In this document: in pieces, positions 3,078 through 26,862 of the stretch
Layout of the letters: the number at the start of each line of letters is the position of its first letter
Numbering within the stretch: position 1 is the first letter of the stretch
Source: Armatimonadota bacterium
GTDB taxonomy: Bacteria > Armatimonadota > Zipacnadia > Zipacnadales > UBA5352
Direction of reading: 5' to 3'
NCBI GenBank assembly: GCA_034722055.1
Contig: JAYENL010000211.1
Span: 1 to 28,759 of the forward strand
Length of the DNA: 28,759 nt
Position numbers and translations under genes: made by a program
The notes under the pieces: model-generated
The model's input: the letters and a program-made list of their open reading frames with translations, nothing else
Databases searched by the model: none
What the model was told of the DNA's origin: nothing

Positions 3078-5144
3078 TTGTCGTTCGAGCAGACGCTGAG
3101 AAAAACCAGGAACATCGGCTTCGCCGCCCACATCGACGCGGGGAAGACCACCACCACCGAGCGCATCCTCTACTACACGGGGAAGGTGCATCGGATGGGG
3201 GAGGTCCATGACGGCGACGCCACGATGGACTGGATGGAGCAGGAGATGGAGCGGGGGATCACCATCACCTCCGCCGCCACCACCTGCAACTGGAAGGACC
3301 ATCGCATCAACATCATCGACACGCCGGGGCACGTGGACTTCACGGTGGAGGTGGAGCGGTCCCTGCGGGTGCTCGACGGCGTGGTAGTCATCTTCTGCGC
3401 CGTCGGCGGGGTGCAGCCGCAGTCCGAGACGGTGTGGCGGCAGGCCACCAAGTACAACGTTCCGCGGCTGGCGTTCGTGAACAAGATGGACCGCATCGGC
3501 GCCGACTTTCATGATGTGCTGCACGAGATGCGCAAGCGTCTGGGCGCCGAGGCCGTTGCCATTCAGCTTCCCATCGGCAAGGAGGACGCCCATCGGGGCA
3601 TCATCGACCTCATCGAGCAGAGGGCCTGGGAGTTCTCGGACGAGGAGGACGTGCCGCCCCGGGAGGTCGAGATGCCTGCGAACATGCGGGACATGGTGGA
3701 CGCCTTCCGGGAGCACCTGGTGGTGAGTCTGGCGGACATCAACCCCGACCTGGAGGAGAAGTTCTTCGCCGGCGAGGAGCCGACGCCGGAGGAGATGTGG
3801 GAGACCATCCGGCGGGCCACCATCGCCTGCGAGCTGGTGCCGGTCATGTGCGGGGCGGCCTTCAAGAATAAGGGCATTCAGCCACTGCTGGACGCTATCG
3901 TGCGCTACCTGCCCTCGCCGATCGACGTTCCGCCGGTGGTGGGCGAGCATCCCGAGACCGGTGAGGAGCTGAGCCGGGCGCCGGATCCGGAGGAGCCCTT
4001 CAGCGCCCTGGCCTTCAAGGTGGCCGTGGACCCCTTCGTGGGCCACATCACCTACATCCGGTGCTACTCGGGCTCGGCGAAGATGGGCGATCGGCTGCTC
4101 AACGCGGACAACGGTCGCAAGGAGCGCATCACGCGGCTTCTGCGCATGCACGCCAATCGGCGCGAGGACATCGAGCAGATCGGCCCCGGCGACATCGTTG
4201 CCGCAGTGGGCCTTGACAACACCACCACCGGTGACACGCTCACGGCCCTGAACGCCCCCATCGTGCTGGAGCGGATGACCTTCCCCGAGCCGGTCATCTC
4301 CATGGTCATCGAGCCCAGGTCACAGGCCGACGAGGATAGGCTGGGAGGGGCCCTGAGGCGCCTGACCATGGAGGATCCCACGCTGCGGCTGGAGACGGAC
4401 ACGGAGACCGGTCAGCAGCTCATCTCGGGCATGGGGGAGCTGCACCTGGAAGTGGTTGTGGACCGCCTGCGGCGGGAGTTCGACGCCGAGGCCAACATCG
4501 GCCGGCCCCGCGTGGCCTACCGGGAGACCATCCGGCAGCCCGCCGAGGGCGAGGGCCGGTTCGTGAAGCAGACGGGGGGCCGGGGGCAGTACGGGCACGT
4601 GATACTGCGGCTGGAGCCCGTCGGAACCGACACGAAGCTGGAGTACGAGGATGAGAGCAAGGGGGACAAGATCCCGGAGGAGTTCAAGTCGGCGGTGGAG
4701 TCGGGCGTGGTGGAGGCCATGGGGGGAGGGACGCTGGCCGGCTATCCGGCGGTGGGGATCCGCTGCACGGTGCTGGGCGGGTCGTTCCACGAGGTGGACT
4801 CCTCGGAGGTGGCCTTCAAGATCGCGGCCGGCCAGGCCTTTCAGCGGGCCTTCGACCGCGGCCGGCCGGTGCTGCTGGAGCCGGTGATGGCGGCGGAGGT
4901 CGTCACTCCCGAGCAGTACTTCGGGGACGTGCTCAACGATCTGACGACCCGCCGGGCGCAGATCGTGGAGGTGAAGGCCACGGCCGGGGACACGCGCACG
5001 ATCGAGCTGAAGGTGCCGCTGGCGAACATGTTCGGGTACGCCACAGCCCTGCGGTCCCTGACGCAGGGGCGCGCGACGTATACCATGGAGCCGGATCGCT
5101 ACCAGCCGGTCCCTGAGGAGCAGCAGCAGGAGCTGGTGAGCTGA
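3078..5144 (+). CDS. fusA: Elongation factor G (canonical)
   Basis: [45 protein letters not shown] start. Confidence 0.99.
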
Positions 5145-5192
5145 GCGGCGGGCGCACGCTTCGTGGGCGACGAGCCCGGAGGGATAGGCACA

Positions 5193-5519
5193 ATGGCCCA
5201 GGAGAACAAGATCAGGATCAAGCTCAATGCGTTCGACCACAAGCTGCTGGACCGGTCGGCGCAGAAGATCGTGGAGACGGCGGAGCGCACCGGCGCCAAG
5301 GTCTCCGGGCCCATCCCGCTGCCCACCGAGAAGCACGTACACTGCGTGGTGAAGCCCACGGCGCTGGGCCGGGCCTCCCGCACCATGGAGCACTTCGAGA
5401 TCCGAGTGCACAAGCGGCTGATCGACATCCTGGCTTCGACGACGCGCACCGTTGACGCCCTCATGAAGCTGGATCTGCCCGGCGGGGTTGACGTGGCCAT
5501 CAAGGCCTACACATCGTGA
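5193..5519 (+). CDS. rpsJ: 30S ribosomal protein S10
   Basis: [29 protein letters not shown]; central loop is divergent. Confidence 0.98.
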
Positions 5520-8774: not shown

Positions 8775-9851
8775 ATGGGTCAGAAAGTACATCCGTACGG
8801 ATTCCGTCTGGGGATCATCCGCGACACCAAGAGCAAGTGGTTCGCGCGGGGCCGGGAGTACCGCGACCAACTGGTCGAGGACCTGCAGGCCCGCAAGCTG
8901 ATCCACGAGCGGCATCACCACGCCGGCATCTCTGACATCCTCATCGAGCGGGCGGCGGGGATCATAACCATAACCATCGAGTCCGCCAAGCCGGGCATCA
9001 TCATTGGCCGCGGGGGCGCGGACGTGGACCGGCTGCGCCGCGACCTGGATGAGATCATGAGCGGGCGGGTGCGGGTCAACGTGGAGGAGACCAAGAATCC
9101 CGAGGTCAACGCCCAGCTCATCGCCGAGGAGATCGCCAGCCAGATCGAGCGCCGGGCTTCGATCCGCCGGGCCATGAGCCAGGCCATCGACAGGGCGGTG
9201 CGGTCGGGGGTTGACGGCATCCGCGTGGCGGTCTCCGGCCGGTTGATGGGCGCGGAGATCGCGCGCACCGAGCGGATGGGGCCAGTGGGCAGCGTGCCCC
9301 TGCACACCCTCCGGGCGGACGTGGCGAAGGGCTTCTCCGAGGCCGTGACGGGATACGGGCACATCGGCGTGCAGGTCTACGTGTGCAACGGAGAGGTCCT
9401 GCCTTCGCCACCCAGCCCGCCCGAGGGCCAGCGCGAGCAGCTTGAGGCCGAGGCCGAGGCTGAGGAGGCTGCGGCGGAGGCCGAAGAGGCCGCACCGGAG
9501 GCTGAGGAGGCCGCACCCGAGGCCGAAGAGGTCGCCGAGGAGCCCGAGGAGGCCGCCGCGGAGGTGGAGGGGGTCGCTGCCGAGGAGGGCGCCGACGTCG
9601 CCGCCCAGGAGGCTGTCGAGGAGCCGGAGGCCGAGCCCGAAGAGGCTGCGGAGATCGATGAGCTGCTGGCCGAGACGGAGGGCGAGGGGGCCACGACCGT
9701 CTCGGCCTCCACCGACCAGGGGGCGCCCACGGCGGACGAGCCGGCCCCGGAATCGGCCCAGGAGGTCTCGGAGCCCGAAGAGGCGCCCGAGGCGGAGGAG
9801 TCGGAGACCGACACAGACGCCGAGGAGGATGCCGGCGATGCTGATGCCTAA
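8775..9851 (+). CDS. rpsC: 30S ribosomal protein S3 with long acidic C-terminal extension
   Basis: [42 protein letters not shown]; about 145-aa Glu/Ala/Pro tail. Confidence 0.98.
9456..9581 (+). repeat. Degenerate 21-nt tandem repeat (5-6 units, EAEEAAP-like) in rpsC
   Basis: Units such as GAGGCCGAAGAGGCCGCACCG and GAGGCTGAGGAGGCCGCACCC start at 9456, 9477, 9498, 9519, 9540 and 9561. Confidence 0.8.
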
Positions 9852-10254
9852 GCGACAGAAGTTCCGCAAGCAGCAGCGGGGGCGGATGAAGGGTAAGGCC
9901 TACCGCGGCTGCCACGTTGACTTCGGCGACTACGGCCTGCAGGCGCTGGAGCCGGGCTGGATCACGTCGCGGCAGATCGAGGCCGCCCGCGTGGCCATGA
10001 CGCGCCGGGCGCAGCGGGGCGGGAAGGTCTGGATCCGCATCTTCCCCGACAAGCCGGTCACCAGGCGGGGCCAGGAGATGCCCATGGGCAAGGGCAAGGG
10101 CGCCCCGGAGTACTACGTGGCGGTGGTCAAGCCCGGGCGAGTGATGTTCGAGATGGCCGGAGTGGAGCCTGAGGTGGCCCGCGAGGCCATGCGGCTGGCC
10201 TCGCACAAGCTGCCCATCAAGACGCAGTTCGTGACCCGGGAGGGCAAACAGTAA
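9838..10254 (+). CDS. rplP: 50S ribosomal protein L16
   Basis: [43 protein letters not shown]. Confidence 0.99.
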
Positions 10255-10493
10255 TGCTGCTGCCTGATGACGCCGACACCACCAGGGAGTTCATTGACGC
10301 CCTCCGGGAGTCCACGGTGCAGGAGCTGACGGAGGCCCGGGCTCAGGTGCAGGAGAGCCTCCAGAACCTGCGCTTCCGGACGGCATCGGGGCAGATCGAC
10401 GACCCCAAGCGCATCCGCAAGTACCGCAAGGCCATCGCGCGCATCAACACCATCCTGCGGGAGCGCGAGCTGGGCATCAACCAGGGCCGCTGA
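10254..10493 (+). CDS. rpmC: 50S ribosomal protein L29
   Basis: [12 protein letters not shown]...[13 protein letters not shown]; position between rplP and rpsQ. Confidence 0.95.
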
Positions 10494-10513
10494 GGCAAAG
10501 CGAGGCAGGGATC

Positions 10514-10774
10514 ATGAGCGAGCGCACAGTGACCAGGCCGATCCGCGAGGGCGTCGTGGTCAGCGACAAGATGGACAAGACTGTGGTGGTGCAGGTGGAG
10601 CGCACCACCCGCCACCCGCTGTATGAGAAGGTGCTGCGGCGCAACACCAAGTTCAAGGCCCACGATGAGACCAACGAGTGCCGGACCGGGGACGTGGTGC
10701 GGATCATGGAGTGCCGGCCACTGTCGAAGACGAAGGCCTGGCGGGTCGTGGAGATCCTGCGCCGGGCCCGGTAG
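10514..10774 (+). CDS. rpsQ: 30S ribosomal protein S17
   Basis: [35 protein letters not shown]. Confidence 0.99.
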
Positions 10775-10832
10775 CGCACTGCCCCGGCCGGGTGGGGGCA
10801 GGCCGTGACGAGCACATCGGGAGGAACGCCAA

Positions 10833-12902
10833 GTGAGCTGGGAACCCAAGGATCTGCGCAACATCGCCCTGGTGGGACACCGGGGCGTGGGCAAGACCTC
10901 GCTGTGCGAGGCCATGCTGCACGCCGCCGGGGTGACCGAGCAGCTCGGCTCGGTGGAAGAGGGCACTGCCGTGGCGGACTTCGAACAGCAGGAGCGAGAG
11001 CGGCAGATATCGATCTCCCCTGCGCTGTGCCACCTGGAGCACCGGGGGGCGAAGATCAACATCATCGACTGCCCCGGCTACTCGGAGTTCTACGTGGACG
11101 CGCTCTACGGACTGTGGGCGGTGGAGAACGCGCTGCTGACGGTGGACGCGGTGGCGGGGGTCGAGGTGCACACCATCAAGATGTACGAGGCGGCGCGGGA
11201 GATGGGGGTGCGCGTGATCGGGGTGGTCAACAAGCTGGACGTGGAGCGCGCCGACCTCGATGGCGCCGTGGCAAGCATGAACGAGAGCCTGCCCGACTGC
11301 GAGGCCGTGGCGGTGCAGATTCCCATCGGTCAGGGCGCGGACTTCCAGGGCATCGTGGACCTTCTGTCCATGACCGCCTACATGAGCTCGGGTGAGAGGG
11401 CGGAGGTCCCTGCTGAGATGGCCGACGAGGTGGAGATGGCCCGGGAGCTGCTCATCGACTCCGTGGCGGCCAGCGACGACGACCTGACCATGCAGTACCT
11501 GGAGGAGGGCACGCTCACCGAGGAGGAGCTGATCGGCGGGCTGGAGAGCGCCGTCCGCGAGGGCCTGCTGGTGCCGGTGCTGTGCGCCTCGGCCACCGGT
11601 GAGACGGGCATCACGCCGCTGTTGGACTTTGTGGCCGACGCCGCCGTCTCGCCGGCCGACGCCGCCCCCCGGGTGGCGATGAAGGGCGAGGAGGAGGTCG
11701 AGCTGTCGGCCGACCCGGATGGCCCTCTGGCCATCATGGTCTTCAAGACCCTCACCGACCCCTACGTGGGTCGGGTGAGCCTGCTGCGAGTGGTATCCGG
11801 CAGGGCGAAGGCCGATGGGGACGTCTACAACACCACCTCGGGCGAGCGGGAGCGGCTCTCGTCGCTGGGGGCGGCGCAGGCTCGGGAGACCGAGGACGTC
11901 GATGAGCTGGTGGCCGGCGACATGGGGGCGGCGGTGCGCCTGGAGGAGACGGCCACCGGCGACACGCTCGCCGGGCAGGGCAGCGAGGTGCAGATACCGC
12001 GTCCGGTGACCCCGGAGCCGATGTACGCCGTGGCCGTGACCGCCGCCTCTCGCGCGGACGCCGACAAGCTCTCCGATGCGCTGGGGCGGCTGACCGCGGA
12101 GGACATGGGGCTGCAGTACGAGCGGAACCTGGAGACCGGGGAGCTGCTCGTGAAGGGCCTCGGACCGATGCACCTGGACGTCGCGGTGGGCAAGCTGCGC
12201 AACCAGTACGATGTGGACGTGAGCATGAGCGAGCCGCGCGTGGCCTACCGGGAGACGGTGAGGCGGGGGGTTCGGGTGCAGGGCCGGCACAAGAAGCAGA
12301 CCGGCGGGCGGGGGCAGTTCGCGGACGTGTCGATCCGCGTGGAGCCGATGCAGCGGGGCGAGGGCTTCGAGTTCGTGGACGAGATCAGGGGCGGGTCGGT
12401 GCCCACACAGTACATCCCGGCGGTGGAGAAGGGCGTCGTCAAGCAGATGGAGCGGGGCTACCTGGCCGGCTACCCCATCGTGGACATTCGCGTGACTCTC
12501 GAGGATGGGAGCTCGCACCCGGTGGACTCGTCGGACATCGCCTTCCAGACGGCGGCCGGCATGGCGCTGCGCAGCGCCATGGAGCAGGCGGAGCCGGTGC
12601 TGCTGGAGCCGATCATGAACGTGACCGTCACCGGCCCGGAGGACGTCATGGGCGACATCATGAGCGACCTCAACGCCAAGCGGGGCCGGATCCTGGGCAC
12701 CGACCAGGCGGGGTCGCTGCAGGTGATCAAGGCCCAGGTGCCCCAGAGCGAGATGATGCGCTACGCCGCGGACCTGCGCTCCATCTCCCAGGGCCGGGCC
12801 AGCTACGAGATGGAGTTCTCGCACTACGAGGAGCTGCCCTCGCACCTGGCCGAGCAGGTCATCGCTGAGGCCAAGCAGCGCGAGGAGAGCGACGAAGAGT
12901 AA
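10833..12902 (+). CDS. fusA2: Elongation factor G paralog (EF-G II type)
   Basis: Full five-domain EF-G layout: [53 protein letters not shown] start after GGGAGG. Confidence 0.95.
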
Positions 12903-12949
12903 GGCCGGGGACACCGAAGGTCCGGCCAGGACAGAGGCAGGGAGGCGGC

Positions 12950-13318
12950 ATGATTCAGACTACAACCCGGCTGAGGGTGGCCGACAACTCGGGCGTCAGA
13001 GAGCTGTTCTGCATCCGCGTGATGGGCAAGAGTGGGTCGCCATATGCGTCGCTGGGCGATGAGATCATCTGCTCGACGAAGGCGGTCACCCCCCAGAGCC
13101 CGATTCCGGCGGGGGAGGTGGTGCGGGCGGTGGTGGTGCGCTGCCGGGACCGGGTGCAGCGCCCGGACGGCACCACCATCAGCTTTGACGACAACGCCGC
13201 CGTGATCGTGGATCAGCACAAGAACCCTCAGTGCACCAGGGTCTTCGGGCCGGTGGCGCGGGAGCTGCGCGATCGGGAGTACATGCGCATCGTGTCCCTG
13301 GCCCCGGAGGTCATCTGA
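12950..13318 (+). CDS. rplN: 50S ribosomal protein L14
   Basis: [42 protein letters not shown]. Confidence 0.99.
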
Positions 13319-13338
13319 GGGACACCGAGGTGTGTGAG

Positions 13339-13701
13339 ATGAGCAGAGACATACGGACCAAGCAGAAGATGCGGATCAAGGTCGGCGACACGGTGGAGGT
13401 CATCGCCGGCAAGGATCGCTCCCTGCCCGGGCGCAGGCGGCGGGGGAAGGTCATCGACGTTGACCCGCGGGCGAACCGCGTCATCGTTGATGGCATCAAC
13501 GTCGTCAAGAAGGCCGTCCGCGAGACCCAGCGTGTGCGGCAGGGGGGGATCGTGGAGACGCCGGCGCCGATCGACGCCTCCAACGTCATGCTGGTGTGCA
13601 CCTCGTGCGAGGAGCGCACGCGGGTGGGCAAGCGGGTGGCGGAGGACGGGACGAAGGTCCGCGTGTGCAAGAAGTGCGGGGCGGATATCGAGTACGAGTA
13701 A
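13339..13701 (+). CDS. rplX: 50S ribosomal protein L24
   Basis: KOW motif IKVGDTVEVIAGKD, VDGINVVKK, APIDASNV; two CxxC pairs. Confidence 0.98.
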   Translation: MSRDIRTKQKMRIKVGDTVEVIAGKDRSLPGRRRRGKVIDVDPRANRVIVDGINVVKKAVRETQRVRQGGIVETPAPIDASNVMLVCTSCEERTRVGKRVAEDGTKVRVCKKCGADIEYE

Positions 13702-13743
13702 GGCAGTGACCGGGCGGCGCGACCGCCGGAATCGGTGAGAGTC

Positions 13744-14319
13744 ATGGCTGAGACAGCAGAGGCGACACAGACCGTAAAGCCGCGGCTGAAGGTGCGCTTC
13801 GAGGAGGAGATCCTCCCGGCGCTGATGGAGCGCTTCAGCTACACGAACGTGCTGGAGGTGCCGCGGCTGCGGAAGGTATGCGTGAACATGTCGGTGCCGG
13901 AGGCGGACACCGACATCGAGAAGCTGGACGCGGCGCGGCAGGAGCTGGCCCTGATCGTGGGCCAGGCCCCGGCGGTGACGCGGGCCCGCAGGTCGATCTC
14001 GAACTTCGGGATCCGCAAGGGCCAGCCCATCGGCCTGCGCGTGACGCTGCGGGGCGCTCGCATGTGGGAGTTCGTGGACCGGCTGCTGAACGTGGCGCTG
14101 CCCCGCATCCGTGACTTCCGGGGGCTGTCGCCGGATGCCTTCGACGGCCGGGGCAACTACTCCCTGGGCATCGGCGATGAGCTGGTCTTTCCGGAGCTGA
14201 GCTACGACGACGTGGAGACGTCCAAGGGCATAGACATCACGATCGTGACGACCGCGGAGAGCGATGAGGAGGCCCGGGAGCTGCTGACGGCGCTGGGCCT
14301 GCCTCTGGCGCGCAGCTAG
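13744..14319 (+). CDS. rplE: 50S ribosomal protein L5
   Basis: [35 protein letters not shown]. Confidence 0.99.
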
Positions 14320-14343
14320 GCGAGAGGACGGGAGGTACGTGTA

Positions 14344-14529
14344 ATGGCGAAGACGTCGTGGATCGTTGACGCGAAGCGCGAGCACAAGTTCAGCACCCGC
14401 GACTACAATCGGTGCGAGCTGTGCGGCAGGCGACGCGGCTACATGCGCAAGTTCGGCATCTGCCGCATCTGCTTCCGGGAGAACGCCCTGGCGGGCAACA
14501 TCCCCGGGGTGCGGAAGGCGAGCTGGTAG
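14344..14529 (+). CDS. rpsN: 30S ribosomal protein S14, short zinc-binding (type Z) form
   Basis: 61 aa, RCELCGR...[16 protein letters not shown]. Confidence 0.98.
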
Positions 14530-15634: not shown

Positions 15635-16006
15635 GTGAAGGCAGAGGTCGATCGCAAGCGACAGAGGCAGAAGCGACACAGGCGAGCGCGCCGCAAGCTG
15701 GAGGGGACTCCCGAGCGGCCGCGGCTGGCCGTCTACGTCAGCCTCCAGCACGTCTACGCCCAGGTCATCGACGACTGGGCCGGTGAGACGCTGCTGGGGG
15801 CGGCCACCGTGGAGGACGAGGTGGCGGGCGAGTGCAGCGGCTCCACCGCCAACACGGAGGCCGCCCGGGTCGTGGGCCGGGTAATCGCCGAGCGGGCGCT
15901 GGATGAGGGCATCGAGCGGGTGTGCTTCGACACCGGCGGCCGGAAGTATCACGGCCGCGTCAAGGCGCTCGCCGACGCCGCCCGCGAGGCGGGGCTGGAC
16001 TTCTGA
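15635..16006 (+). CDS. rplR: 50S ribosomal protein L18
   Basis: [39 protein letters not shown] start. Confidence 0.98.
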
Positions 16007-16016
16007 GGTGCAGGCA

Positions 16017-16217
16017 ATGGCTGACCGGATCACGGTGACGCAGACGCGCAGCACCATCGGGGTCAAGCCCAAGCTGCGCCAGACGCTCCGCGCCCTGGGC
16101 CTGCACGGCATCGGCAGCAGCAACGTGCTTCCCGACAACGGGGCGACGCGGGGCATGATCCGCGCCGTCTCCCATTTGGTTGACTACGAGCCCGGCGACG
16201 GGCAAGAGGACGAGTGA
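16017..16217 (+). CDS. rpmD: 50S ribosomal protein L30
   Basis: [11 protein letters not shown]...TLRALGL...[11 protein letters not shown]. Confidence 0.96.
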
Positions 16218-18025: not shown

Positions 18026-19489
18026 ATGGCTCTCGGAGAGTGCAATATCGTGCTGCTGGGGCCGCCGGGGGCGGGAAAGGGCACCCAGGCCAAGATGCTC
18101 AGCGATGAGCTGGACGTTCCGCACATCTCCACCGGGGATATCCTGCGGGAGGCGGTCGCGGAGGACACGGACCTGGGCCGAAAGGCCGAGGCGTACATGG
18201 ATCGTGGTGAACTTGTGCCCGATGAGCTCGTCATAGCTATAGCCCGGGAGCGCCTGGCCCAGGAGGACTGCGAGGGCGGCTTCATTCTTGACGGCTTCCC
18301 TCGAACCGTGGCCCAGGCCGAGGCGCTCGGCGAGGCCATGGACGACCTCGGCCGTGATCCCCTGACCGTCATCAACCTGGTCGTGGACGAGGACGAGATC
18401 GTGCGCCGGCTCTCGGGCCGGCGGCTGTGCAGCGAGTGCGGCGGCATCTATCACGTGGATCAGGAGGGTGTCGAGGACGGCGGGCAATGCCCCGATGCGG
18501 ACTGCGACGGCGAGCTGTATCAGCGCAGCGACGACCGTCCGGAGGCAGTCCGGGAGCGCCTGTCAGTCTACCGGGAGCAGACCGAGCCGCTGATCGAGTA
18601 CTACGATCAGCGCGGCGTGTTGGTCAACGTCTCCGGGGAGGGCGAGCCGAAGGAGATCTTTGACCGCATGGTGGAGGTCGTGGGTGGCGGGGGGGCAGTG
18701 ATGACCGGCCCGCGGATCAAGGGCCATGAGGTCAGGCCCAAGACTCAGGCCGAGCTGGAGACAATGCGGCATGCCGGCAAGATCCATGCCCGCACGCTGG
18801 CGCGGCTCCGCGAGGCCATCGAGCCGGGGGTCACGACTGCGGAGCTGGATCGGATCGCCGAGGAGGTGATCGGCGAGGCGGGGGGTGAGCCCTCATTCAA
18901 GGGCTACCAGGGCTATCCGGCGGCGATCTGCGCGCAGCGCAACGACGTGGTGGTGCACGGCATTCCGTCGGAGGACGAGGTGCTGGTGGAGGGCGACATC
19001 TTCGGCGTGGACCTGGGGGTGCAGTGGGGAGGTTATCATGCCGATGGTGCTTTCACGATGGGCGTCGGCGAGATCGACGAGCCCTCCCGACGGCTGCTGG
19101 AGGTGACCGAGCGAGCCCTGGAGCTGGCCATCGAGCAGGTGCGCCCGGGAAATACCATCCGGGACATCGCCTCGGCCGTGCAGACGCACGTGGAGGCGGC
19201 GGGATTCTCGGTGGTGCGAGCCCTGGTGGGGCACGGCATCGGTCAGCGGATCCATGAGCCGCCGCAAGTGCCGAACTTCATCGACGACGACCGGAACGCG
19301 ACGTATGACTTCGAGCTCGTTCCGGGCGTCACGGTGGCCATCGAGCCGATGGTCAACGCCGGCGGGTATGAGGTGGTGCAGGACGCCGACGGGTGGAAGG
19401 TTCGCACGCGGGACGGCAGCCGGTCGGCGCACTTCGAGCACACAGTGGCCGTCACCGAGGACGGCTGCTGGATTCTCACCGCGCCCTGA
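18026..19489 (+). CDS. adk: Adenylate kinase, fused in frame to methionine aminopeptidase as assembled (Adk domain about 18026-18700)
   Basis: GPPGAGKGTQA, STGDILR, GFILDGFPRT, Cys-containing lid, QRSDD; no stop codon before the map sequence. Confidence 0.9.
   Translation: MALGECNIVLLGPPGAGKGTQAKMLSDELDVPHISTGDILREAVAEDTDLGRKAEAYMDRGELVPDELVIAIARERLAQEDCEGGFILDGFPRTVAQAEALGEAMDDLGRDPLTVINLVVDEDEIVRRLSGRRLCSECGGIYHVDQEGVEDGGQCPDADCDGELYQRSDDRPEAVRERLSVYREQTEPLIEYYDQRGVLVNVSGEGEPKEIFDRMVEVVGGGGAVMTGPRIKGHEVRPKTQAELETMRHAGKIHARTLARLREAIEPGVTTAELDRIAEEVIGEAGGEPSFKGYQGYPAAICAQRNDVVVHGIPSEDEVLVEGDIFGVDLGVQWGGYHADGAFTMGVGEIDEPSRRLLEVTERALELAIEQVRPGNTIRDIASAVQTHVEAAGFSVVRALVGHGIGQRIHEPPQVPNFIDDDRNATYDFELVPGVTVAIEPMVNAGGYEVVQDADGWKVRTRDGSRSAHFEHTVAVTEDGCWILTAP
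18701..19489 (+). CDS. map: Type I methionine aminopeptidase (C-terminal part of the fused ORF; has its own ATG)
   Basis: VVHGIP, DLG...GYHAD, GHGIG..IHEPP, AIEPMVN, SAHFEHTV. Confidence 0.95.
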   Translation: MTGPRIKGHEVRPKTQAELETMRHAGKIHARTLARLREAIEPGVTTAELDRIAEEVIGEAGGEPSFKGYQGYPAAICAQRNDVVVHGIPSEDEVLVEGDIFGVDLGVQWGGYHADGAFTMGVGEIDEPSRRLLEVTERALELAIEQVRPGNTIRDIASAVQTHVEAAGFSVVRALVGHGIGQRIHEPPQVPNFIDDDRNATYDFELVPGVTVAIEPMVNAGGYEVVQDADGWKVRTRDGSRSAHFEHTVAVTEDGCWILTAP

Positions 19490-24915: not shown

Positions 24916-26862
24916 ATGACCCGCCGCGCCGCGTGTGTTGCGATGCTGATGCTGCTGGTCGCCTGCGCGCCGCTGTGGGCGGCGCCGCATGGCCGCCACC
25001 TGGCCGCGCTCGTTGTCCGCTACGGCGATGAGGTCTACGGCCGCCGGGAGCAGCAGACTCATTACGACGAGGCCACGCACCTGATGCGGGATGGTGCGGG
25101 GCGGCTGAATCTGGTGGAGACCAGCCTCAACTACGCTGCGGCGCTGCTGGCCGTGGGGGAGGCCCCCGAGCGGGCTCAGAGCGTGATCGAGGCCGTCCTC
25201 GAGAAGCAGGTCGCCGACGAGTCCTCGCCGAGCCTGGGGCTCTTCCCGTGGTACGCCGAGGAGGGCGCCGAGGCCGACCCGGACGCCACCATGTACATCG
25301 CGCCCACGCTGGCGCACCTGGCGATGACCTACGAGGGCGACGCGGCGCTGCGGCGGCTGCTGGGCGAGCGCGCTGAGCTTGCCCTGCAAGGCCTGATGGC
25401 GGCTGAGGGGCGGCCCGAGGAGGGCTTCGGGCTGGCGATGTGGGCGGGGGCGGTGGCGAGTCTGGGCGCGGCGGCCGATGACGATGAGGCCCGGGCTGCC
25501 GCCGGCGACGCTGTCCGCCGGGGGCTGGCGCTGGTGCGCTCGCGTGGCCCCGGGGGGATCCACAGTCCCACCTACGACGCCCTGCGTATCGGTGGCCTGC
25601 GGTGGGCGTGGCAGTACGCGGCCGATGAGGAGGCGCGGCGGGAGTGCGAGCTGGCGTTGCGGCTGTGGTACCTGGACATCCTGCAGCGCTACGAGCCCAC
25701 GTCGGCGATGGTGACCGGCGCCATCGGCCGATCCTACGCCGCCGACTACCTCGGGAGCACAGGTGTTGCCCGCTACCTGCTGGCCTGCGACCTGCCGTCG
25801 GCGATGGCGGCGACCGGCTGGGCCGGGCCGCTGGCGATGTACTTCGCGCTGTGCGACTACGCGCTCCCCGAGGACCTGGTGGCCCTGGGGGAGAGCGATG
25901 CAGTGGTGCAGATGCGCACCCGCCTGCCCCCGCGGGAGGAGGACGTCCTGGAGGATGCCGGCACCTGCACGTGGGTGGGGCCGGGCATGAGCCTGGGGAC
26001 CATGAGCGGGGTGGTTGAGTCCTCGAGCATCCCCATCCTGGCCACCTGTGACCTGCCGCTGCGGCCCACGAGCTACTTCTACGTCTTCGGGGCTCCAGCC
26101 ACCGTCCAGAGCGTGCAGGCGGGGCCGCTGGCGCTGTGCAGCTTCAACTTCGACGCCGTGGGCCCCGGGCGCCGGGTGCAGGTGGGCGTGCGGGGCATCC
26201 TCGGCCGCCGGGATCAGATCCAGCGCGTCATCGTCGGCGGGCACGAGTGGATCGGCGAGCCGGAGGCGGTGGGGCAGAACGCGGTGGTGGCGGTCCGGAG
26301 GGGCAGCTCCTACGTGGGAGTGAAGATCCTGGAGGTCGCCATCGGCGCGGAGATGCGCTCGGGGGTCAAGCCCGGGGCCCTGGAGTGGCTGCGCGAGGGG
26401 AACATGGACTCGCTGATGCTCCAGGTGTACGGGCGGGAGGCCGAGTACCCTCCGCCCAAGCCGCTGTATGATGTCCGGGTGGGGCTGCTGGTGGAGGTGG
26501 CGCCGGTCTCCGAGCACGAGTCCCTGGAGGCCTTCGCGGAGCACGTGGGCCAGCGGAAGGTCTCCCAGCACATCCAGAAGCAGCGCGTGCGCGTGGATAG
26601 GGAGCAGAGGCGAGAGATCCCGGGCCGCCACGAGCTGAAGACGCTACAGGAGATGCGCTTCCTGAACCTGCTGCATCACTCCATGGCGCTGACGGACGAG
26701 GCCCTGCCGCTGGGGCTGAGCGAGGAGCTGGCGCGGAATGTGCTGGTGTCGCGAACGCTTCCCACCGAGCCGCCGGAGGACTACCTGTGGGTGTCGCCGG
26801 AGCTGACGCTCACGACCGGCGGGGAGCTGCTCGGGGCGGAGGAGGGGCCCGCCGCGCAGTAG
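24916..26862 (+). CDS. Secreted hypothetical protein (648 aa)
   Basis: GGAGGAG SD, host-like codon usage, signal peptide (MTRRAACVAMLMLLVACAPLWA); helical N-half and beta-rich C-half by eye. Confidence 0.8.
   Translation: MTRRAACVAMLMLLVACAPLWAAPHGRHLAALVVRYGDEVYGRREQQTHYDEATHLMRDGAGRLNLVETSLNYAAALLAVGEAPERAQSVIEAVLEKQVADESSPSLGLFPWYAEEGAEADPDATMYIAPTLAHLAMTYEGDAALRRLLGERAELALQGLMAAEGRPEEGFGLAMWAGAVASLGAAADDDEARAAAGDAVRRGLALVRSRGPGGIHSPTYDALRIGGLRWAWQYAADEEARRECELALRLWYLDILQRYEPTSAMVTGAIGRSYAADYLGSTGVARYLLACDLPSAMAATGWAGPLAMYFALCDYALPEDLVALGESDAVVQMRTRLPPREEDVLEDAGTCTWVGPGMSLGTMSGVVESSSIPILATCDLPLRPTSYFYVFGAPATVQSVQAGPLALCSFNFDAVGPGRRVQVGVRGILGRRDQIQRVIVGGHEWIGEPEAVGQNAVVAVRRGSSYVGVKILEVAIGAEMRSGVKPGALEWLREGNMDSLMLQVYGREAEYPPPKPLYDVRVGLLVEVAPVSEHESLEAFAEHVGQRKVSQHIQKQRVRVDREQRREIPGRHELKTLQEMRFLNLLHHSMALTDEALPLGLSEELARNVLVSRTLPTEPPEDYLWVSPELTLTTGGELLGAEEGPAAQ

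Follow-up and report, generated by a model that had tools for sequence, protein, structure and literature searches.

What is a second elongation factor G gene doing inside a ribosomal-protein operon? The question is raised by a stretch of DNA of 28,759 nucleotides from an Armatimonadota bacterium, hereafter called the window. The window is one whole contig (C211 of assembly G000) and carries the str, S10, spc and alpha clusters. Our first-pass annotation reported a complete EF-G gene between rpsQ and rplN, with spacers of only 58 and 47 nt. The open reading frame, which begins with GTG and has no internal stop codons, bears this out (Table 1). Note that a second EF-G, fusA, is encoded in the same window, and that the two proteins are 38% identical. 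In the 93%-complete assembly, these two are the only full EF-G matches.

Table 1. Positions of the two EF-G genes, their motifs and the neighbouring features in the window.
Feature	Position	Strand	Remarks
fusA (EF-G I), str cluster	3078..5144	+	canonical G domain; loops I and II intact
fusA third tip loop KGDKIP	4659-4676	+	in place of xGGxxP
rpsQ (uS17)	10514..10774	+	upstream neighbour
58-nt spacer	10775..10832	+	GGAGG at 10820-10824
EF-G II (EF-G2) gene	10833..12902	+	689 aa; five EF-G domains; predicted EF-G fold
G1/P-loop GHRGVGKT	10875..10898	+	aa 15-22; Gly for Ala, EF-G II type
G2/switch I RQISI	11001..11015	+	aa 57-61; Ser for Thr, RGITI lost
G3 DCPGY	11067..11081	+	aa 79-83; Tyr83 in catalytic His position
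Domain IV loop I QTGGRGQ	12297..12317	+	intact (E. coli Q507 and both glycines)
Domain IV third tip loop RGGSVP	12387..12404	+	GG intact
Domain IV loop II HPVDSS	12516..12533	+	intact (E. coli H583, D586)
47-nt spacer	12903..12949	+	GGAGG at 12941-12945
rplN (uL14)	12950..13318	+	downstream neighbour

Several other features of the window were recorded. Upstream of rpsL, at positions 197-1611, a Gp49-like (DUF891) gene and an XRE HTH gene are followed by an ORF that looks SecB-like by eye and has no family match; this is a possible toxin-antitoxin-chaperone module. The uS3 protein (8775-9851) ends in an acidic stretch of about 145 aa, rich in Glu and Ala, and acidic extensions are also present on uS11, uS5 and RpoA. 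The rpsE gene is absent between rplR and rpmD (16006-16017), as in all class members read. In G000 it lies alone on another contig (L163, G000:C321:175-639), behind the promoter-like sequence TTGACA-17-TACAGT. Adenylate kinase and methionine aminopeptidase (adk and map) form one ORF of 487 aa (18026-19489), which is either a fusion or a read-through. Directly after rpsI, a probable secreted protein of 648 aa is encoded (24916-26862), with no Pfam or NCBIfam match.

The protein encoded between rpsQ and rplN belongs to the EF-G II subfamily. It clears the cut-off of the PRK12740.1-5 subfamily model (854 against 583 bits). It is not a member of EFG I, as its TIGR00484 score is below the cut-off for the canonical protein (634.6 against 659.4 bits) and its motifs differ. 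Cut-offs of the Bacteroides EF-G2 family NF058620 (544 against 1000) and the actinobacterial EF-G2 family NF009377 (613 against 890) were also missed. An AlphaFold model, made with a 34-row alignment as input, has a pLDDT of 91 and resembles EF-G structures. A Tet ribosomal protection protein was considered and rejected (NF012153, 276.5 against 775). Residues diagnostic of EFG II have been tabulated by Margus, Remm and Tenson 2011 (PMC3150367). Mapped onto the window protein through an alignment with T. thermophilus EF-G1, 12 of the 13 residues are present. All seven type II residues agree (Asp216, Val250, Leu264, Lys471, Lys472, Glu513 and Gly603, which is G622 here). Type I positions Gly16, Leu25, Ser61, Thr291 and Lys/Arg352 are found as G15, L24, S60, T306 and R369. 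The exception is type I Gly333, replaced by Ala in the window and retained as Gly in 57 of 72 operon-encoded EF-G II proteins. The subfamily's other marks are also found: RGITI is absent, with Ser at the fourth position of G2, the G1, G3 (DxPG), G4 and G5 motifs are all kept, and fusA accompanies the gene. In a tree built without the reference set of Margus 2011, the protein falls among EF-G II and is separate from EF-G I, here represented by 18 fusA (stem 0.42, support 0.945). Hence, the phylogeny that the first-pass annotation proposed as a check supports its assignment of an EF-G II paralog, as do the subfamily score, the diagnostic residues and the conserved synteny described below. Named Armatimonadota records carry proteins that are 92% and 77% identical.

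The same annotation highlighted three G-domain motifs, GHRGVGKT, RQISI and DCPGY. All are present exactly as claimed. They represent the ordinary state of EF-G II. None of 89 Armatimonadota and none of 29 Chloroflexota EF-G II proteins has a catalytic His, which occurs once among 30 EF-G II proteins of other phyla. We rejected the His-to-Tyr change as a novelty, since Tyr, Phe or another non-His residue is usual here. Tyr likewise occupies this position in T. thermophilus EF-G2. Hence, with non-His being the rule across the EF-G II proteins sampled, the G-domain changes of the window protein are ordinary. We conclude that the unusual feature of the gene is its genomic position, not the His-to-Tyr change.

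How widely is this position shared? Among 30 relatives, the EF-G II locus was found in 28. The order rpsQ-EF-G II-rplN is seen in 27 of these, and the remaining locus is cut by a contig start. An assembly chimera, named in the first-pass annotation as a possible source of error, does not explain an order that recurs in this way. The annotation also proposed a synteny survey. For this, EF-G, rplN and rpsQ were located in 151 genomes of the phylum, including G000, and 53 doubtful or unsettled genomes were searched again; most site calls are from coordinates, with neighbours read directly in a subset of loci. EF-G II lies in the S10-spc operon in 106 of the 151 genomes. Site A, the arrangement of the window, accounts for 47 (one split across two contigs), and site B, rplE-EF-G II-rpsN, for 59 (two cut on one side by a contig end). 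Of the others, one has 2.5 kb between rplE and EF-G II, 16 have the gene elsewhere in the genome, and one is unassigned. No EF-G II was found in 27 genomes, some of them in 1-3 contigs. Counted by family, the operon position occurs in 34 of 39, with 15 at site A, 19 at site B, and none with both. The term 'core factor', used in the first-pass annotation, is therefore too strong at the level of the phylum. With no copy detected in those 27 of the 151 genomes, EF-G II is not universally essential.

Some lineages have arrangements that are as expected if EF-G II left site B. In families f18 and f21, the operon breaks directly after rplE in all five loci read. In two f15 genomes that lack EF-G II, unrelated genes stand between rplE and rpsN. 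As a separate observation, at locus L185 (G076:C67), an opposite-strand UmuC/DinB-like gene is located between rplE and EF-G II, and the operon ends after EF-G II. In a control from another phylum, Chloroflexota, a ribosomal-protein gene of the query set lay within about 1.5 kb of EF-G II in 0 of 29 loci (five of these loci are cut on one side). A second control sample, meant to represent Bacillota, was set aside because its genomes, of 0.5-2 Mb and with at most one EF-G match each, evidently belong to a different phylum. None of the other non-Armatimonadota EF-G II loci adjoins a ribosomal-protein gene; one is 4.7 kb from an rplF match. Of 80 loci from metagenomes, a single one has EF-G II in spc, at site B. 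We also searched the literature on EF-G paralogues in combination with Armatimonadota, operons or gene order, with most subscription journals outside the coverage, and found no report of the S10-spc position or of EF-G II as a main translocase. We conclude that the arrangement is real, old, and phylum-scale, and that it involves a known protein subfamily.

Is the gene expressed with its neighbours? The first-pass annotation noted no evident promoter or U-tailed terminator. Our scan of positions 9500-14500 agrees, with neither a sigma70 promoter nor a U-tailed terminator detected, but the blank is weak, since chance expectation was just 0.2 and 0.9, and the scan has little power. The spacers fold no better than shuffled sequences (z 0.23 and -1.44), and their lengths are in line with those at other junctions of the cluster. 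Rfam finds zero families in the window. Codon usage is host-like, as had been claimed. Briefly, GC3 is 0.94 and the codon adaptation index, calculated against ribosomal proteins of the window, is 0.766 (93rd percentile of 2625 long ORFs), close to the 0.755 of fusA, although the index discriminates poorly in this 68% GC genome (0.726 for truA and 0.741 for a hypothetical gene). In several relatives (L113, L165, L117, L175, L124, L184, and L178), the stop or start codon of EF-G II overlaps that of a neighbour, in the sequences TAATG, ATGA, GTGA, and ATGGCTAA. Hence, these relatives have no room for separate signals. Together, conserved synteny and overlapping codons suggest that EF-G II is likely to be co-transcribed with the ribosomal-protein genes. 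This much of the co-expression that the first-pass annotation proposed can be kept.

The history of the locus can be followed in part. A ribosomal-protein tree (63 rows) and the EF-G II trees have the same shallow clades. On the EF-G II tree, two changes of site are needed; site B comprises one large clade plus family f24, and site A is spread over three deep clades. The five outgroup rows of the ribosomal-protein tree are partial and not monophyletic, and neither tree is reliably rooted, so that either site may be the older. Deep nodes of the EF-G II trees lack resolution, and these trees give no support for monophyly of all Armatimonadota EF-G II. The shared shallow clades and the spread of the two sites fit early insertion, vertical inheritance, and a move across the rplN-rplX-rplE block. 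Family f24 uses site B though its tree neighbours use site A. In two f24 loci (L174 and L175), EF-G II is shortened to about 657-660 aa, and its profile match is split in two by about 40 unmatched positions in the G' region. Measured against three family members, dN/dS is 0.15-0.19 for EF-G II and 0.12-0.13 for fusA. For domain IV, values are 0.10-0.16 for EF-G II and 0.18-0.26 for fusA, across three overlapping pairs.

We turn now to what the two proteins might do. In E. coli, Q507, H583, and D586, in loops I and II of domain IV, are needed for translocation and frame keeping (PMC7749637). Equivalents of these residues, and of the loop I glycine pair, are present in 119 of 119 aligned EF-G II proteins; the intact tip is general to EF-G II, including copies outside operons. 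For 47 genomes with both genes, mean identity in domain IV is higher for EF-G II (63.5%) than for fusA (53.0%), and domains I-III show the reverse. The Pfam EFG_IV score in the window is 152.5 for EF-G II and 127.2 for fusA, and the domain IV score of fusA is below that of EF-G II in 15 of 15 family pairs. Domain III is part of the interface with RRF (PMC9067457). Its fit to the EF-G I profile is 0.92-1.08 in EF-G II of the window's order, 1.22-1.39 in other EF-G II, and 1.72-1.92 in fusA.

The window fusA keeps all four key features (equivalents of Q507, GG, H583, and D586), as do 88 of 91 Armatimonadota fusA and a further 20 of 20. The third tip loop differs, with GD or GN in place of GG in 16 of 16 fusA from the window's family. 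Changes are also found in f7 (3/4), f4 (7/11), and f24 (3/3). Among outside reference fusA, 46 of 48 retain the GG pair, as do 117 of 119 EF-G II, 16 of 16 fusA from genomes with no detected EF-G II, and 6 of 6 from genomes with EF-G II outside the operon; all of these counts include kin and are not independent. Our literature search turned up nothing on what the third tip loop does. A relaxation of fusA domain IV throughout the phylum was tested and rejected, the mean score being 1.60 where EF-G II is missing versus 1.79 with EF-G II at site B (the fusA of G080, with its broken frame, was left out). In that genome (L439), tuf is broken likewise. The fusA at G134:C6:2625492-2627629 matches in two pieces, with a 225-nt gap. 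An insertion or a sequencing error may lie behind either case. All 16 loci of family f1 (window 5144-5193), and some other lineages, have no tuf after fusA, so that str is joined directly to S10. The one tuf of G000 is elsewhere (G000:C130:43014-44213).

A more extreme situation was found in f2, a family of the window's order represented by four draft genomes (84-92% complete). Here, fusA has its usual position, rpsL-rpsG-fusA(-tuf), and a canonical G domain. All four key features are lost in the three full copies, where the loop I sequence is DRILAGKRH or DRVISGKHQ and the His of loop II is gone; the fourth copy is cut short of domain IV. The same tip loss is seen in 11 protein clusters of the f2 fusA clade, two or three of which are the same proteins as the genome copies. 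What is new here is that one family in the window's order has a str-operon fusA lacking the residues that domain IV uses in translocation. On columns outside domain IV, f2 fusA is placed inside the order's fusA clade, where its neighbour is the window's family (two trees, with support of 0.57 and 0.95). The stem branch is 1.2 for domain IV versus 0.1-0.3 for other domains. Alteration of the loop I glycines, Q507 and H583, with an intact G domain, is the criterion for spdEFG2/mtEFG2 proteins, and f2 fusA has this combination. Descent from the spdEFG2 clade was not found, as f2 fusA nests among fusA of the order on domains I-III and V. Its domain IV matches six tip-less EF-Gs of other lineages, picked for similarity, at 34-46%, against 26-39% for sister fusA. 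With rows selected in that way, convergence and a domain swap would both be compatible with these data.

Which EF-G could translocate in f2? A PF03764 search of G018 and G276 detected two domain IV copies in each, one from EF-G II at 146-156 bits and one from the eroded fusA at 47-68 bits. In both drafts, an intact tip is found on the operon EF-G II alone. The same search of G029 detected EF-G II only. G024 has a third gene, which is EF-G I-like, long-branched, and outside str, with loops I and II intact (L428, G024:C34:9729-11780); no such extra EF-G was found in G018, G276, or G029. Loss of the loop I glycines marks the recycling-only EF-G2mt and Borrelia EF-G2 (PMC8203779), and by analogy f2 fusA looks recycling-only. 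Calling it a recycler is complicated because loop II, also changed, is needed for recycling in E. coli, where loop II deletions block the process and loop I is dispensable (PMC4666400). The first-pass annotation had suggested that EF-G II divides its work with fusA. Within the window's order this has genomic support, since EF-G II keeps the tip while fusA erodes; it does not extend to a relaxation across the phylum.

Our preferred reading, to which we give a probability of roughly 0.55, is that the window EF-G II is a co-expressed housekeeping translocase that shares work with fusA, and that fusA is drifting towards recycling. EF-G II would have entered the S10-spc operon early in Armatimonadota and been inherited vertically, coming later to occupy one of two sites flanking the rplN-rplX-rplE block. 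Carried on ribosomal-protein mRNA, it would be made in proportion to ribosomes during growth. Judging by its motifs and by other EF-G II proteins, it would bind the ribosome and, using its intact domain IV, move tRNA-mRNA with weak or non-canonical GTP hydrolysis. A steady supply of this second translocase may relax selection on the fusA tip in the window's order. In the window's family, erosion would be slight, with fusA probably still doing both jobs. In f2, erosion would be complete, with fusA recycling-only in appearance and EF-G II probably the main translocase. More tentatively, and at less than even odds, the EF-G jobs may be splitting in this one order, such that the His-less operon EF-G II is the main translocase (in f2, the only one) and the str fusA a recycling factor. 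If so, translocation during elongation in these cells would involve little GTP hydrolysis, or hydrolysis of a non-canonical kind.

Could EF-G II instead be an accessory factor, a slow or stress-time translocase riding in the operon and comparable to the EF-G2 of Bacteroides or mycobacteria? The window fusA would then do both jobs, and f2 would use an EF-G I that is unassembled or acquired. We consider this rather unlikely, given that the position is retained in 34 of 39 families with tight coupling, that no extra EF-G was found in G018, G276, or G029, and that ribosomal-protein operons are, as is generally known, induced by growth and not by starvation. Even so, an accessory role would sit well with the 27 genomes where EF-G II was not found and the 16 or 17 more where it is outside the operon, with the retention of loops I and II in the window fusA, and with the additional EF-G I-like gene of G024. 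Doubt that translocation is the main role of EF-G II has also been published (PMC4342817).

A role in recycling, rescue, or ribosome assembly, and not in elongation, would make the operon position a matter of stoichiometry with new ribosomes. The position suits assembly, and EF-G II has an intact loop II, as recycling in E. coli requires, but loop I is invariant too, though dispensable for recycling (PMC4666400). Furthermore, domain III fits the EF-G I profile worst in EF-G II of the window's order, whereas fusA keeps this part of the RRF interface, and M. smegmatis EF-G2 cannot recycle (bioRxiv 10.64898/2026.05.25.727771). We regard such a role as improbable. It is more improbable still, to the point of being nearly negligible, that the insertion is a local accident or an assembly chimera, or that the gene is transcribed alone. 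Some site-B spacers exceed 100 nt (100-250 nt or more, with start codons set by a simple rule) and could hold promoters, which a scan of little power might miss. Yet the same order recurs in 27 of 28 relatives' loci and in 47 of 151 genomes, and codons overlap in several.

EF-G II is widespread and regarded as accessory. A phylum with EF-G II in the operon, and a family with a tip-less fusA, offer natural test pairs for its role. Whether growth is possible with a translocase that lacks the catalytic histidine can be tested, and bears on the need for GTP hydrolysis in translocation. In addition, the two operon sites provide a gene-order marker for deep Armatimonadota clades.

Both EF-G II and split EF-G systems are already known (PMC4342817; PMC3832671; PMC12172202). 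Like the EFG II subfamily as described (PMC3150367), the window protein has a relaxed G domain, an RxxSI G2 motif, a conserved domain IV, and another EF-G always alongside. Unlike that description, EF-G II of the window's phylum has a conserved S10-spc home, and the window protein has Ala at Gly333; the accessible text gives a conserved gene context for EFG I (the str operon) only. T. thermophilus EF-G2 (PDB 1WDT/2DY1) is 36% identical, of EF-G II type, and has both loop I glycines. It has ribosome-dependent GTPase and some poly(Phe)/elongation activity (PMC9067457; PMC3150367), and it is not known to take over from EF-G I in vivo. The EF-G2 proteins of B. thetaiotaomicron (fusA2/BT2167; PDB 8DMF) and M. 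smegmatis (PDB 9K0Z) are EF-G II with little GTPase. The Bacteroides protein supports GTP-independent translation (PMC10294740). M. smegmatis EF-G2 has Tyr98 at the catalytic position, equivalent to Tyr83 of the window protein, and neither recycles nor replaces EF-G1, the GTPase of which is almost abolished by H88Y (bioRxiv 10.64898/2026.05.25.727771). In the absence of GTP hydrolysis, translocation slows by as much as 30-fold; His91Ala EF-G shows this slowing and stays bound (PMC4718068). Both EF-G2 proteins are described as non-essential and linked to stress or starvation, whereas the window EF-G II is in a growth-linked operon.

In split systems (Borrelia spdEFG1/spdEFG2, EF-G1mt/EF-G2mt, and P. 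aeruginosa EF-G1A/1B; PMC3832671), the tip is present in one copy and lost in the other, as in f2. The f2 sequence DRILAGKRH has Ala for the first glycine, as does Borrelia EF-G2, and the Lys-Arg that follows is as in EF-G2mt (PMC8203779). Unlike in those systems, the eroded f2 copy descends from the lineage's own fusA. The translocase of split systems is an EF-G I-type protein, or spdEFG1, with a canonical GTPase site, whereas the translocase proposed here is a His-less EF-G II.
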